A stretch of DNA of 64,000 nt from Candidatus Edwardsbacteria bacterium RifOxyA12_full_54_48 (GCA_001777915.1 MFFN01000007.1:4807-68806), one strand, 5' to 3'; shown: positions 17,798-26,749, counted from the stretch's first letter. Numbers and translations: made by a program. Notes: generated by a model from the sequence alone, not told the origin.

Positions 17798-17839
17798 AAA
17801 GAACGGGGGCCGAGCCAAAAGCTCGAGCCCCCGTTCTTT
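17798..17839. terminator. bidirectional hairpin between convergent PPIase and sigma-54 activator genes
   Basis: AAAGAACGGGGGC...GCCCCCGTTCTTT, a 13-bp outer stem with an inner CGAGC/GCTCG stem, flanked by A-run and T-run. Confidence 0.7.
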
Positions 17840-19499
17840 ATTGATCTTTGCCGTCTGGCTTATTTTCGCCGGGCGGTTTCATTTTATAACGTCCTATCAG
17901 CCGATATACCTGCTGGCGGGTGATGCCCAACTGCCTGGCTGAAGAGGTGATATCCCACCGGTTGGCTGCCAGGGCCTGGGAAAGATGCTGTCTTTCCAGT
18001 TTCCTTTTAGCCTCCTTCAGGTTGCCGGGTTCCGTTTCTGCCTGGGGAGAGGCCAGCAATCCCAAATGGTCCGGCTCGATCAGCCGGTCGTCACACATGA
18101 TCACCGCCCGCTCGATCTTGTGCTCCAGCTCCCGAATGTTTCCCGGCCACTGATATCCCATAAGAGAGAATTTGGCTTCAGGGCTGAAGCGGGCTGCTTC
18201 TTTTTTATGTTTGAGGGAGAATTTTTTCAGAGAGGATTCGGCCAGCAGTAAAATATCGCTGCCCCGGTCCCTTAGGGGGGGGAGCTCCAGGGTGATGATG
18301 TTAAGCCGATAGTAGAGATCCTTGCGGAATATTCCCTTGGCTACCTCCTGCTCCAGGTCGTGGTTGGTGGCGGCAATGATCCGGACATCCACCCGGATCT
18401 GCTCCCGGCCCCCCAGGTGCTCGATCACCCCCTCCTGGATGGCCCGTAGCAGCTTGATCTGCAGGGGCAGGGCCATCTCCCCGATCTCATCCAGAAAAAC
18501 GGTTCCGCCGTTGGCCATCTCAAATTTCCCCATCTTGCGGGCAAAGGCTCCGGTAAAGGCCCCCTTCTCATAGCCGAACAATTCCGATTCCAGAAGATTT
18601 TCCGGAATGGAGCCGCAGTCGATAACGATGAAGGGTTTTTCCTTGCGCTGGCTTAAGTCATGGATCTCCCTGGCCACCAGGGTCTTTCCGGTGCCCGACT
18701 CCCCCAACAGCAGCAGATTGACCTCGGAGCCGGCCACCCGCCGGATGATGGAGAAGACACCATCCATGGCCGGGCACTGCCCCAGCAGGTCGCTCCGACC
18801 GTCCAACAGTTGCTGCAGGGACAGGTTTTCCCTCTCCAGCCGCAGCCGCTTCTCCTCCTCCAGGGTTTTGATGCCCTCCACCAGCCGGGCATTTTCTATG
18901 GATATGGCCGCCTGGGCGGCCAGGGCGGCCAGCAGGTCCAGATCGTGATGGCTGAAGGTCTCCTGGATCCGCTGGCTGTCCACATAGATGACGCCTATGG
19001 CTTTGCGTTGCTGGGCCTGCCCGGCTAACAGGGGAACGCACATCGATGAACGGAGCTGGAGGTCGGCCACCGAGGCGGCCTGGTTGAACTCCGGATCCTG
19101 GCTGATGTCCTTAAGCCACAGGGGCTGTCCGGTGGTGATGACCTTTTCGGTTATGGTGCGGCTGAAGCGAAGGTCGTCCTTGTCCCAGGCCTGGTTGGGG
19201 CCGGCCCGGGTGACCGTAATGTTCAATTTCCCGCTCTGGTCATACAGCATCAAAAAGCCCCGCGAGGCCCCGGTCAGCTCCATCACCGAATCCATGATGG
19301 TGTCCAGCAGCTGGTCCTGGTTCAACACCCGGCTGATCTTGCGGGAGACCTCCAACAACAGGCTCAGGGCGGCTGCATCCTGTCCCAGACTGCCGGTCCG
19401 GCCCTGCATCTCCTCCAGGGCCTGGGCCGCGGCAGCCAGGTCCAGCTCGGCTTCGGCCACCAAATTTTCGACATTATTGATTCTGCGATTATCCTGCAA
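17838..19499 (-). CDS. sigma-54-dependent transcriptional activator (GAF sensor + AAA+ + Fis-type HTH)
   Basis: [14 protein letters not shown] Walker [16 protein letters not shown] (GAFTGA loop), C-terminal [22 protein letters not shown], and an N-terminal GAF-like region. Confidence 0.9.
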
Positions 19500-23605: not shown

Positions 23606-26600
23606 ATGAAAAAGGTAGGTTTACTGGTAGCGGCCGTCATTATTCTGGCCGGATTGGCATCAGCCCAGACCACCATCTTCTCAGACAACATGACCGGCTT
23701 CCCCACGGGTTGGACGCTTTCGCCCACCACCGGTGGCTGGACCAAGACCTCCACCAAGTATTACAGTTCATCCTACAGCGCCATGTGCGACAATGTCAGT
23801 CCTTACGGGGCCAACCAGAACAATTATATAACCAAAACGGTCAGCCTATCGGGATATAGCAACGTCGCCCTGAAATTCTACATCTGGCAGTACAGCGAGA
23901 GCGGCTACGACTATATCCGGGTGCAGTACCTGGTGGGCAGCACCTGGACCACCGCCTGGCAGAGGGCCGGCAGCTATCAGTCTTGGGCCCAGCAGTCGGT
24001 CAGCATTCCCAACACCGCCACCCAGGTCCGATTTTATTTCAACTCCGACGGCAGCGTCCAGAACACCGGGGTGTACATCGATGACGTGGTCCTTACCGGG
24101 ACAGCGGCCACCGTTACCCAGAATGATGCCGGGACTGGCACCGATGCCGGCAACACCATAGCCACCGCTACCACGGTAAATCCGGGTTCGTGGACCGGCT
24201 GTTATTTGGATGCCACTGATCGAAACGACTATTACAAGTTTAACGTTACCGCGGGCCAGGTAATCAAACTAAAAGTAACCCCGCCCTCAACGGCCGACTA
24301 CGACCTCTATCTGCATAACACATCGCAGACCCAGGTTGGCGCCAGCACCCAGGGAACCGGCTTGGTTGACTCCATTGTCTACACCGCCACCACTACCGGC
24401 TACTGGTATTGCCGGGCCTACGAATACAGCGGCACCGGCAACTACTCATTGCTGATCTCGGTGAGCGGCGGGACCACCCCGACAACGATTCTGGCGATCA
24501 ACACGACCTCGTGGGCGCCGGTGGCGGCGGGCGGGACCAGCTCGGCAGTCAGCGTGACCAACAGCGGCACGAGCGGCAGCGTGATCGCCTACACGGTGTC
24601 CGACAACGCCACTTGGCTGACCACCTCGGCCGCCAGCGGCAATACCCCGGGCAGCTTCACCATGACGGCCTCGGCCAACACCGGTGCGGCGCGAAGCGCC
24701 ACGGTCACTGTGGCCGCGACCGGCCAGACCTCCAAGACCATCACCGTCAACCAGGCGGCAGCCAGCACCGGCGGAGCTGAATGGACCGTCATGATCTACC
24801 TGAACGCCGACAACAACCTGGAGACCGACGGGATCAACGATTTTCTGGAGATGGCCGCCGCCTCATACAGTTCGGGCAAGATCAACGTCATCGTTCAGAT
24901 GGACCGGGCCTCGGGCTACGCCACCACCTATGAGAATTGGACCGGCTGCAAGCGTTTCAAGATCGCCAGCGGGATGACCCCCACTGCGGCCTACCAGATA
25001 TCGGACCTGGGCGAGGTGGACATGGGCAGTCCCACCACCCTGGTCAACTTTGCCACCTGGGCCATCCAGAACTACCCGGCCAACCGCTATTCCCTGGTTA
25101 TGTGGGATCACGGCGACGGCTGGTACAAGACCGATGCCAGCCCCATCAAGGGCTTCTCCAACGACGACTCTCACGGTTCGGTGATCGGCATAGCCAACGG
25201 CGAATTCGCCAGCGCCATGGCCCAGATCAAGACCGCCCTGGGCCGGAACCTGGACCATATCGGCTGGGATGCCTGCCTGATGGGCATGTGGGAGGTGCTG
25301 GACATATCCCGCAATTACGCCAACGTGGCCAACGTCTCCGAGGAGACCGAGGGGGCCGCCGGCTGGTATTACACCACCTGGCTGAACGTCATGAACACCA
25401 CCCCCACCACCAGCGCCATTGACATGGGCAAAGCCATCATCAACGGCACCACTCAATCGACCCTGTCGGTGGTGGACCTGACCCTGATCTCCAATCTGAC
25501 CACCAAGGTCAACACCCTGGCCACCGAGCTGATGGCGACCCGGGGGGCCGGCCTGGGCGCCAGCATCAGCACGGCGCTTAACAATACCCTCAAGTTCTCC
25601 ACCAGCTATTTTTCATATCACATAGATCTGTCCGACTTCGCCGCCAAGGTCAAGGCCGCCATCACCACCCGGCCCACCCTGACCACCGCCTGCGACAACG
25701 TCATCAGCGCGGTGACCTCGGCGGTCAAACTGTACAAGAACTCCTCCACCTACGCCAATGCCCGGGGCATCGCGGTCTATCACTGCAAGATCGACGGCTC
25801 CAATTACGATACCGCCTACAACAGCCTGCCCATCGCCTCCAGCACGGTGTGGGATGAGTACATCAAGGGCGGCTCCAGCGGCGGAACCACCGCAAATTAC
25901 ACCAAGAGCACCGCCACCTACAGCTGGGATGCCTCGGCCACCACGGCCACCGGCCTGACCGGGGACGACCAGAGCGTCAGCAAGTCCATCGGTTTTGCCT
26001 TCAACTTCTACGGCACCAGCTATACCACCGTCAACATCTGTTCCAACGGGTTCCTCAATTTCGGCACCAGCTCCACCGCCTACACTCCGGCCGCCATCCC
26101 CAACACTGCGGCCCCCAACGCCCTGATCGCCGGCTTGTGGAGGGACCTTAACGTATCGGGCGGCGGAACCATCACCTACTACTCTTCGGCCACCAAATTC
26201 GTGGTGTCATTCAACGCCGTCAAGAACTACTCCAACACCAGCCTGCAAACCTTCCAGATGATCCTGACCCCCGACGGCAAGATCAAGATCCAGTGGGGTG
26301 GCATCACCACCGAGACCTATGCTTCGGGGGTGGAGAACCAGGGCGGCACGCTGGGCGTGGCGGCCACCGCCGCGGCCAATTCGGCGGCGCTGTTCACCCC
26401 GCCGGCGGCCTGGAGCAGCCCGATCAATGAGAATGAATTGGAGACCAGGCTCAATCCGCAGGGGATGCCGCTATCCAACCAGCTGTTCCAGAACGCCCCC
26501 AATCCGGTCAGATATAAAACCCTGATCGCCTTCCAATTGGAGAAGCCGGGCGCTGTTTCCCTGAAGATCTACAATCTCAACGGACAGCTGGTCAGAACCC

Positions 26601-26749
26601 TGGCCTCGGGGCAGCATAATTCCGGATATCATCAGGCCATGTGGGACGCCAAGGATGATGCCGGAAGGAAGGTGGCTGACGGAGTATATATCTATAAGCT
26701 GGCCTGCGGCGAGTTCAACCACGCCAAAAAAATGGTGCTGGTCAAATAA
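23606..26749 (+). CDS. secreted multidomain clostripain-family (C11) cysteine peptidase-like protein with Por/T9SS-type C-terminal domain
   Basis: Signal peptide. PPC-like segment NDYYKFNVTAGQVIKLKVTPPSTADYDLYL. BACON-like segment ending ATVTVAATGQTSKTITVNQAA. C11 core is EWTVMIYLNADNNLE, with a His in MWDHGDGW and a Cys in IGWDACLMG. C-terminal sorting domain present. Confidence 0.8.
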   Translation: MKKVGLLVAAVIILAGLASAQTTIFSDNMTGFPTGWTLSPTTGGWTKTSTKYYSSSYSAMCDNVSPYGANQNNYITKTVSLSGYSNVALKFYIWQYSESGYDYIRVQYLVGSTWTTAWQRAGSYQSWAQQSVSIPNTATQVRFYFNSDGSVQNTGVYIDDVVLTGTAATVTQNDAGTGTDAGNTIATATTVNPGSWTGCYLDATDRNDYYKFNVTAGQVIKLKVTPPSTADYDLYLHNTSQTQVGASTQGTGLVDSIVYTATTTGYWYCRAYEYSGTGNYSLLISVSGGTTPTTILAINTTSWAPVAAGGTSSAVSVTNSGTSGSVIAYTVSDNATWLTTSAASGNTPGSFTMTASANTGAARSATVTVAATGQTSKTITVNQAAASTGGAEWTVMIYLNADNNLETDGINDFLEMAAASYSSGKINVIVQMDRASGYATTYENWTGCKRFKIASGMTPTAAYQISDLGEVDMGSPTTLVNFATWAIQNYPANRYSLVMWDHGDGWYKTDASPIKGFSNDDSHGSVIGIANGEFASAMAQIKTALGRNLDHIGWDACLMGMWEVLDISRNYANVANVSEETEGAAGWYYTTWLNVMNTTPTTSAIDMGKAIINGTTQSTLSVVDLTLISNLTTKVNTLATELMATRGAGLGASISTALNNTLKFSTSYFSYHIDLSDFAAKVKAAITTRPTLTTACDNVISAVTSAVKLYKNSSTYANARGIAVYHCKIDGSNYDTAYNSLPIASSTVWDEYIKGGSSGGTTANYTKSTATYSWDASATTATGLTGDDQSVSKSIGFAFNFYGTSYTTVNICSNGFLNFGTSSTAYTPAAIPNTAAPNALIAGLWRDLNVSGGGTITYYSSATKFVVSFNAVKNYSNTSLQTFQMILTPDGKIKIQWGGITTETYASGVENQGGTLGVAATAAANSAALFTPPAAWSSPINENELETRLNPQGMPLSNQLFQNAPNPVRYKTLIAFQLEKPGAVSLKIYNLNGQLVRTLASGQHNSGYHQAMWDAKDDAGRKVADGVYIYKLACGEFNHAKKMVLVK

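Follow-up and report, generated by a model that had tools for sequence, protein, structure and literature searches.

Sigma-54 activators are known to take their input from receiver domains, from small-molecule-binding GAF, PAS or V4R domains, or from partner proteins such as NifL or PspA. The nifL and nifA genes are translationally coupled, and the enhancer consensus of NifA is TGT-N10-ACA. In Escherichia coli, PspF is encoded divergently from its sigma-54 target pspA-E, and its sites overlap its own expression signals, so that it is negatively autoregulated. PknK of Mycobacterium tuberculosis has a kinase-AAA_16-MalT-like TPR architecture and a transcription-factor substrate, and FHA-domain sigma-54 activators of Myxococcus xanthus are thought to receive Ser/Thr kinase input. 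In Porphyromonas gingivalis, a member of the FCB superphylum, proteases exported by the type IX secretion system (T9SS) are controlled by PorXY-SigP, that is, by an extracytoplasmic function (ECF) sigma factor and a two-component system. We analysed a stretch of 64,000 nucleotides (the window; positions are counted from its first letter) from Candidatus Edwardsbacteria bacterium RifOxyA12_full_54_48 (GCA_001777915.1 MFFN01000007.1:4807-68806), in which an operon for a Ser/Thr kinase-STAND-TPR protein and a sigma-54 activator with GAF, AAA+ and helix-turn-helix (HTH) domains is divergent from the gene for a secreted C11 cysteine protease, with a regulatory spacer between them. We consider it probable that this locus is a sigma-54 module for extracellular cysteine peptidases, the activator of which is gated by the kinase via phosphorylation. 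The chain from kinase to activator to sigma-54 promoter to exported protease had been proposed in a sequence-only reading of the window, and comparison with related loci supports each of its links as a prediction.

The locus resembles NifL-NifA in the GAF-AAA+-HTH order of its activator and in the sensor gene immediately upstream, which here is likewise translationally coupled (the NifL-NifA complex is described in PMC12998190), and the window has a dyad of the form TGT-N11-ACA as against TGT-N10-ACA for NifA. It differs in that the partner is a Hanks-type kinase-STAND-TPR protein, whereas NifL is PAS/histidine-kinase-like, and in that the target is a secreted protease rather than the nif genes. 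The divergent layout is shared with PspF and pspA-E, a dyad box abutting the kinase start codon in the window, but PspF lacks a sensory domain, its controller being PspA, whereas the window activator is the second gene behind a kinase-STAND sensor. The window kinase has the same architecture as the PknK/MalT family, with a sigma-54 activator as its partner and Arg for Lys in the P-loop. Unlike the M. xanthus FHA activators, the window activator carries no FHA domain, and its link to a kinase comes from gene fusion and coupling. PorXY-SigP also regulates T9SS-exported proteases and differs by its ECF sigma factor and two-component system. A survey of sigma-54 systems lists receiver, PAS and GAF inputs and no Ser/Thr kinase input (PMC3162934), and the expansion of Ser/Thr kinases and sigma-54 activators in myxobacteria is noted in PMC8538405. 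The features of the locus are as follows.

17838 to 19499, minus strand: sigma-54 enhancer-binding protein, 553 aa, TTG start, with matches to GAF, Sigma54_activat, AAA_lid_14 and HTH_8 (Pfam and NCBIfam)
19489 to 23187, minus strand: Ser/Thr kinase - STAND NTPase (AAA_16) - TPR sensor protein, 1232 aa from ATG (domain matches)
19489 to 19513, minus strand: coupling junction with the kinase stop codon, the 11-nt overlap (19489-19499) and a GGAGG ribosome-binding site (19509-19513), by direct sequence reading
23188 to 23605, no strand assigned: divergent regulatory spacer of 418 bp with three dyad boxes and the -24/-12 element (sequence)
23188 to 23204, plus strand: dyad box 1, TGTAACAAAAAGATACG, 15.3 bits by position weight matrix (PWM), abutting the kinase start codon; candidate autoregulatory operator
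23334 to 23350, plus strand: dyad box 2, CGTAACAAAATGATGCA, PWM 17.1 bits, within a perfect 12-nt inverted repeat (23323-23334 / 23348-23359)
23441 to 23457, plus strand: dyad box 3, TGAAACAAAATGATACA, PWM 22.3 bits; candidate upstream activating sequence
23545 to 23561, plus strand: sigma-54-type -24/-12 promoter, TGGTATGAAAAATGCTT (sequence, local shuffles, orthologue conservation)
23606 to 26749, plus strand: secreted clostripain-family (C11) cysteine protease, 1047 aa (domain matches)
26773 to 26799, plus strand: terminator-like hairpin 3' of the protease gene, with an 11-bp stem (6 G-C pairs) followed by a T-rich tail

The three open reading frames of the sequence-only reading were reproduced by gene reading, and so were two details of their arrangement: the 418-bp gap it called extremely AT-rich has 22.0% GC (23188-23605) versus 54.1% for the window, and the 11-nt overlap it saw between the kinase and activator genes is present, given the TTG start of the activator at 19499. 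Related loci (L numbers) were collected by a genome-collection scan with a 12-sequence protease alignment, which gave 79 loci, and further ones came from a metagenome scan and contig look-ups. In L005, ATG stands at the position of the window's TTG with the same 11-nt overlap, and L009 has ATG with a 17-nt overlap. GGAGG is located 8-9 nt 5' of the activator start in the window, L005 and L009, inside the last codons of the kinase gene. Because the overlap is kept in orthologues and GGAGG lies within the 3' end of the kinase gene, translational coupling of kinase and activator is well supported as a prediction.

The protease gene is preceded by TGGTATGAAAAATGC, which agrees with TGGCAC-N5-TTGC at 7 of the 10 specified positions, TGG and TGC included. 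GG occupies 23546-7 and GC 23558-9; from the first base of the motif to the protease ATG the distance is 61 nt. From the usual 11-12 nt between the -12 GC and +1, transcription of the protease would start near 23570. We then asked how often a strict motif, TGGYAY-N5-WTGC, occurs when the 200 nt before the gene at each locus are shuffled 2000 times with dinucleotides preserved. It was found in 2 of the 2000 shuffles for the window protease and in 1-11 of 2000 for the orthologous upstream regions, a per-locus chance of 0.05-0.55% in the seven shuffled loci (window, L005-L009 and L084). The actual upstream DNA carries the strict motif in all nine Edwardsbacteria-type loci in which it is readable. 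The distance from the motif down to the C11 start is 60-90 nt in the window, L005, L006, L007, L008, L084, L166 and L167, and in L009 the motif instead precedes a C14 gene, which is separated from the C11 gene behind it by 22 nt. When six spacers were aligned (mean column identity 60%), the TGG, AT and TGC of the motif belonged to the small number of columns that do not vary. As a control, the strict motif was present in only 2 of about 52 distant C11 genes (at most 45% identity; 500-nt window around the start).

The motif also occurs beside a different activator. In WOR-3/Hydrothermia, where the proteases share about 50% identity with that of the window, L020, L021 and L028 have the canonical TGGCACATAATTTGC, TGGCATTAGTTTTGC and TGGCACGAATTTTGC (TGGCAC/TGGCAT-N5-TTGC) 43-48 nt before the ATG, and L023 and L024 have one-base variants of the canonical -24/-12 motif. 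In all five loci the same strand carries a gene with Sigma54_activat and HTH_8 whose N-terminal region is unrelated and whose end lies about 190-210 nt upstream, the order being M14 carboxypeptidase (minus strand), sigma-54 activator (plus) and C11 protease (plus). This arrangement was read at about 8300-10000 (3900-5400 in L023), and the N-terminal region of the activator, 140-160 aa, has no assigned domain. GTGTCAA and TTGACAC repeats are found 110-195 nt before the protease start in the same five loci and are probably, judging from their position, the sites of the WOR-3/Hydrothermia activator. No -24/-12 motif was seen before the M14 carboxypeptidase gene of the WOR-3 loci, where the spacer is short. 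We conclude that the exact GG/GC spacing of TGGTATGAAAAATGCTT, its retention in orthologues and its rarity in local shuffles mark a genuine, conserved sigma-54-type promoter by sequence criteria; a promoter of this type had been seen here in the first reading of the window.

A second conserved block in the six-spacer alignment is TGTAAC-N5-GATACA. A PWM for this dyad was built from other loci only, with an AT-rich background, and both strands of the window were scanned. Only four sites were found in 64 kb, three of them in the 418-bp spacer (a fifth match is the reverse-strand palindrome of box 3), and unrelated loci amounting to 1.8 Mb gave 4 matches. The sole match outside the spacer, 37932-37950 (plus strand, 15.6 bits), lies at the junction of the pilM and pilN genes. 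The centre of box 3 is 97 nt upstream of the -24 GG; across loci the proximal box keeps 97-98 nt from the GG in the window, L007, L008, L009 and L084, as against 105-106 nt in L005, L006 and L166. Such a placement fits that of an upstream activator site, about 80-200 nt from the promoter. Boxes 2 and 3 are spaced 107 nt apart, about ten helical turns, with a spacing of 105-107 nt in L005, L007, L009 and L084, and the orthologous spacers have two or three boxes each. Each of the ten kinase-activator loci has a dyad box that touches or overlaps the kinase ATG, and this holds for L085, L086 and L168 too, which have no adjacent protease. The boxes are candidate activator sites because one copy always accompanies the kinase-activator operon, and we infer that the activator would bind them. 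The presence of the same box at the start of the kinase-activator operon and about 100 nt upstream of the -24 element is thus consistent with the suggestion that the activator drives this promoter, and the box at the kinase start would most likely give negative autoregulation of the operon. A third, partly conserved block, TGYAAT...RTTA, occupies 23507-23527 in the window, 20-40 nt upstream of the -24 element. By eye, no convincing integration host factor (IHF) site was seen in the spacer.

The link between the sensor and the activator is indicated by gene adjacency and by gene fusion. Kinase and activator genes stand side by side in every one of the ten orthologous loci (window, L005, L009, L084, L085, L086, L166, L167, L168 and L007, the last one partial), with their ends overlapping or nearly abutting, even where identity falls to 46% for the kinase and 55% for the activator. 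Among the homologues retrieved with the kinase as query were 24 split orthologues (P0072-P0095), and 55 of the best 120 homologue clusters were single chains of about 1,700-2,000 aa in which kinase and activator are fused. A chain was called fused when it had the kinase DFG in its N-terminal 300 residues and GAFTGA, which lies near residue 1500-1630. Pfam matches of the fused chains are Pkinase, AAA_16, TPR, GAF, Sigma54_activat and HTH_8. In one of them, P0097, residues 9-1293 align end to end with the window kinase (E 1e-116) and, past a 45-residue linker, residues 1338-1799 align with the activator from its residue 45 on (E 1e-91). Two fused genes are single called genes on their contigs. 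Since the homologues are fused in one chain, the window kinase and activator are likely to act as one unit, and the adjacency in 10 of 10 loci together with the fusions argues for the sensor-to-activator link first read from the window. The same domains in the same order are found in fused proteins of Acidobacteriota and Thermoanaerobaculia, which differ from the window in being one polypeptide rather than two coupled genes and in keeping the P-loop Lys, where the motif was found, versus Arg in the split clade. Their database names are "sigma 54-interacting transcriptional regulator" or "Nif-specific regulatory protein". In the metagenome loci L108 (2734-7286), L122 (1912-6446) and L147 (9995-15109), genes for GAF-PP2C (SpoIIE) phosphatases immediately precede kinase-AAA_16/NB-ARC-TPR genes, and the GAF domains of these phosphatases are 35-40% identical to that of the activator. 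These neighbours may be read as a weaker hint of a kinase-activator link.

Both regulators have the sequence features of their families. The activator matches Sigma54_activat (PF00158) with 231.5 bits (cut-off 20.2; E 5.9e-69) and has intact Walker A GESGTGK at residue 266, GAFTGA at 313 and Walker B DEIGE at 337. An intact GAFTGA is a criterion for a functional sigma-54 activator (PMC3162934). A C-terminal, Fis-type HTH_8 covers residues 499-537 (1.9e-08). Its best solved relative is NifA (9qq6_C, E 6.8e-84, residues 45-534), and its score under the NifA equivalog TIGR01817 is below the cut-off (399.4 versus 528.85 bits); it is therefore classed, from these scores, as NifA-like in architecture only and not as NifA. 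The kinase protein begins with a Pkinase domain (171.5 bits, 3.1e-50) of Hanks type and non-RD (HLD), and continues with AAA_16 (75.7 bits, 7.8e-21) and a repeat arm (TPR_12, 145 bits; TPR_MalT, 45.1 bits, 1.1e-11, at its cut-off of 45). AAA_16 followed by a TPR arm is the layout of a STAND NTPase of MalT/AfsR type.

The protease belongs to Peptidase_C11 (PF03415, MEROPS C11) with 121.8 bits (cut-off 25.8; E 6.1e-35). The His/Cys dyad, which had been described as intact, consists of H502 (25109-25111) and C557 (25274-25276); both residues are invariant in 12 orthologues, and their regions align with the HG and DACLMG motifs of the solved clostripain 9cip. With 59 bits against the 550 of the clostripain equivalog TIGR02806, the protein is classified by score as a member of the C11 family and not as clostripain itself. 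Its order is signal peptide, MAM-like, BACON-like, C11 and T9SS C-terminal sorting domain. A Sec signal peptide (MKKVGLLVAAVIILAGLASA/QTT) was read directly and is kept in orthologues, and the T9SS type A sorting domain TIGR04183 scores 34.2 (cut-off 23), so that the protease is predicted to be a type IX secretion cargo. No T9SS machinery genes were recognised among the scanned window ORFs, in scans not aimed at them. The identical protease sequence is found on Candidatus Edwardsbacteria contig MFFP01000003.1 (GCA_001777945.1, Rifle aquifer) and on several metagenome contigs.

Taken as a mechanism, sigma-54 RNA polymerase would sit on the -24/-12 element (23545-23561) and stay closed until the GAF-AAA+-HTH activator acts. 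Dimers of the activator would bind the dyad boxes at 23441, 23334 and 23188 and assemble the ATPase ring, and looping of the bendable AT-rich DNA would allow the GAFTGA loop to touch sigma-54 and open the promoter, with a start near 23570. The C11 protease would then be exported by Sec and afterwards by the type IX secretion system. The kinase-STAND-TPR protein would gate the activator, held to it in a fixed ratio by translational coupling and by physical association: a signal would be sensed by the TPR arm, the STAND core would oligomerise, the kinase domains thus brought together would phosphorylate the N-terminal or GAF region of the activator, and repression of the AAA+ domain by GAF would be relieved. 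The phosphorylation step and the nature of the signal are our suppositions here.

Several observations weigh against this mechanism. A scan of the whole window for the sigma-54 consensus gave 6 matches versus 6.96 expected, that is, no enrichment, in a test that is weak because G+C-rich coding DNA dominates the expectation. The spacer has 11 sigma-70-like hexamer pairs versus 5.0 +/- 2.6 expected, and a sigma-70 start is therefore possible. No rpoN was found by Pfam scans of about 45 ORFs of the 64-kb window, nor by an RpoN-box regular expression over six-frame translations of the related loci collected (1.3 Mb); that the genome encodes sigma-54 is presumed. Another strict match, TGGTATCCCTTTTGCAT at 28148-28164 (minus strand) in the GT4-nrdR spacer, is kept in L005 and L009 and is uninformative because the whole of that spacer is conserved (91% identity), and conservation alone is therefore no proof of function. 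In L085, L086 and L168 the kinase is divergent from an amidohydrolase (Amidohydro_3) gene, the protease is not adjacent, and the spacer that separates the kinase and amidohydrolase genes has no -24/-12 motif; L006 has 5.3 kb upstream of its protease without the kinase-activator pair, its boxes and promoter being kept. The boxes are assigned to the activator by co-location and on no other ground. The domain scan found neither an FHA domain nor a recognised phospho-acceptor motif in the activator. Finally, the STAND P-loop reads GETGIGR[TS] (GETGIGRT in the window, residues 312-319, about 22230-22250), with Arg for Lys in 24 of 24 split orthologues; the canonical Walker A, GxxxxGK[ST], is thus missing from the split kinases, and judging from this substitution the STAND NTPase cycle may be unusual or inactive.

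The first of these observations would be expected if the -24/-12 match were non-functional, with sigma-70 driving the protease, the activator having its targets elsewhere, and TGGTAT...ATGCAT and the boxes serving other factors. The window-wide count at chance level, the sigma-70-like sites of the spacer, the failure to find rpoN and the pairs without a protease would all agree with this, as would L012 and L013 (WOR-3), in which a clear TTGACA...TATAAT takes the place of -24/-12. We nevertheless regard such an explanation as improbable: the spacing and position of GG and GC are exact while the flanks have diverged to 60% column identity, the canonical consensus recurs beside an unrelated activator in another phylum, the motif arises in at most 0.55% of local shuffles at any locus and is missing from nearly all distant C11 genes, and no sigma-70-like hexamer pair is kept in the six-spacer alignment of the protease upstream region. 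A sigma-70 candidate for the kinase, TTGACG-17-CATAAT at 23487-23459 (minus strand), was rejected since it is not kept in the spacer alignment, and a second -24/-12 promoter at 9105 (plus strand) was dropped, as it sits in low-GC coding sequence.

The lack of an FHA domain and of a recognised phospho-acceptor motif could be explained if the kinase-STAND-TPR protein were a stoichiometric partner that does not phosphorylate, promoter and activator working as proposed above. It might keep the activator switched off, in the way that NifL restrains NifA, or its oligomerisation in response to a signal might directly template the ATPase ring of the activator. Translational coupling would supply the fixed ratio, and the fused forms place STAND-TPR directly before GAF-AAA+, so that oligomerisation could be passed on mechanically; the nearest solved relative of the activator, NifA, is controlled by NifL binding and not by phosphotransfer (PMC12998190), and the activator has no FHA or recognised phospho-acceptor module. 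However, K43, HLD128-130, N135 and DFG148-150 of the kinase are invariant in three aligned split orthologues, and such conservation of the catalytic Lys, HxD, Asn and DFG is unexpected for a pure scaffold. P0097 keeps the catalytic Lys and HxD as well, DFG having been itself a selection criterion for the 55 fusions. The Lys of the P-loop is kept in the fused relatives where the motif was found (P0096, P0097 and P0108), and its change to Arg speaks against a normal nucleotide-driven assembly cycle in the split clade. Altogether, we hold this non-phosphorylating variant to be unlikely, though it has a considerably better claim than a non-functional promoter, and we prefer gating by phosphorylation.

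Comparison of the loci also bears on how closely the module is tied to the protease. The sequence-only reading had suggested a dedicated circuit. Control of the protease stands as a prediction, and strict dedication does not, since promoter and box also precede a C14 caspase-like peptidase gene in relatives. This gene lies upstream of the C11 gene in L006 (4148-4972), L008 (294-1148), L009 (9121-9978) and L167 (6715-7572) and has a -24/-12 motif of its own. The dyad box before this motif is some 70-110 nt distant in L006, L008 and L009 and some 230 nt distant in L167, and in L006 the protein was seen to have a lipoprotein-type signal peptide. The window has no C14 gene. Conservation of the neighbourhood, which had been put forward as a check, was found for the kinase-activator pairing in 10 of 10 loci and not for the adjacency of the protease, which is missing in L085, L086 and L168. 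The window counterpart of the Amidohydro_3 gene is at 50480-52054, with about 27 kb (23606-50479, compared with 6294-8000 of L168) in between that hold the protease, GT4, nrdRD, CreD and pilMNOQ genes and are present there only in this lineage. Because an amidohydrolase gene takes that place in L085, L086 and L168, the kinase-protease adjacency is a property of a subclade. In L006, where boxes and promoter are kept with no pair nearby, control would therefore be in trans. The two fused homologues whose neighbours were examined have neighbours unrelated to proteases, and the protease output is therefore not general to the family.

A STAND NTPase with a kinase effector, in the company of caspase-like or clostripain-like proteases, also calls to mind a conflict or anti-phage system that senses infection and deploys these proteases. 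The kinase domain matches PADLOC kinase models (mad6, 2.1e-63, and PD-T4-6), the C14 gene of the relatives matches the PADLOC caspase model (3.6e-14), and STAND-plus-caspase conflict systems are described in PMC7159879. Yet the matches are single-domain ones, with none across the STAND region and none for the protease; no full-length PADLOC match was obtained, and the identification as a defence system was rejected. Because of their export signals (Sec signal and T9SS sorting domain in the protease, lipoprotein-type signal in the C14 protein) the C11 and C14 proteins are expected to work beyond the cytoplasm; in relatives the kinase protein forms one chain with a transcription activator, and the flanks are housekeeping genes in conserved synteny (TonB/ExbBD and the peptidyl-prolyl isomerase, PPIase). 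A defence role is thus very improbable, and regulation of exported peptidases by sigma-54 remains the explanation that we favour.

The flanks consist of TPR, ExbB, ExbD, ExbD, TonB and cyclophilin genes on one side and of GT4 glycosyltransferase, NrdR and NrdD genes on the other. An ordinary promoter of the same organism, TTGACA-17-CATAAT, precedes nrdR at 28215-28247 (plus strand), and the spacer of this promoter contains a possible NrdR box, the palindrome CCATATATGG (28226-28235). An Rfam search of the window returned only a tRNA, with no riboswitch or known RNA in the 418-bp spacer. A second STAND-type signalling protein is encoded at 119-3013 (plus strand), an adenylate/guanylate cyclase domain being followed by an AAA_16 NTPase, with weak PADLOC PycC matches. 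A low-GC block (37-45% versus 54%) extends over 8100-12294, and at 8581-12294 it encodes a 1237-aa protein with the same T9SS sorting tail as the protease and no other recognisable domain. Similar proteins of 1225 and 1244 aa flank the C11 gene in L006.

Text searches of the literature yielded no paper that treats a kinase domain together with a sigma-54 activator and no relevant paper linking type IX secretion to sigma-54, only incidental mentions on an unrelated topic; no study of the fused kinase-activator proteins was found in the literature searched either. The circuit had been thought undescribed, and the literature searched held nothing relevant to it. Judged by its sequence, the layout of promoter, enhancer and adjacent activator is standard sigma-54 design, and it is the sensor module that is undescribed in the literature searched and widely distributed. 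We tentatively propose, with somewhat less than even confidence, that kinase-STAND-TPR proteins form a widespread, unstudied class of input, fused in Acidobacteriota-type genomes and split and coupled in Edwardsbacteria, in which the two-component receiver is replaced by a eukaryote-like kinase and an Apaf-1/MalT-style oligomerisation switch, and that in FCB-related candidate phyla this input licenses the secretion of C11 and C14 peptidases via type IX, possibly in response to the availability of protein or peptides.

The inputs known for sigma-54 activators would be extended by a new kind, a Hanks-type kinase linked to a STAND oligomerisation switch, which, to go by the 55 fusions among the best 120 homologue clusters, is common in public data. 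The Edwardsbacteria locus would be a compact one in which to study it, comprising two regulator genes, a 418-bp control region with its boxes and one target. These results suggest that the major secreted cysteine peptidases of Edwardsbacteria, WOR-3 and Hydrothermia are under all-or-none control by sigma-54, which would bear on the timing of protein degradation by these groundwater and sediment bacteria.

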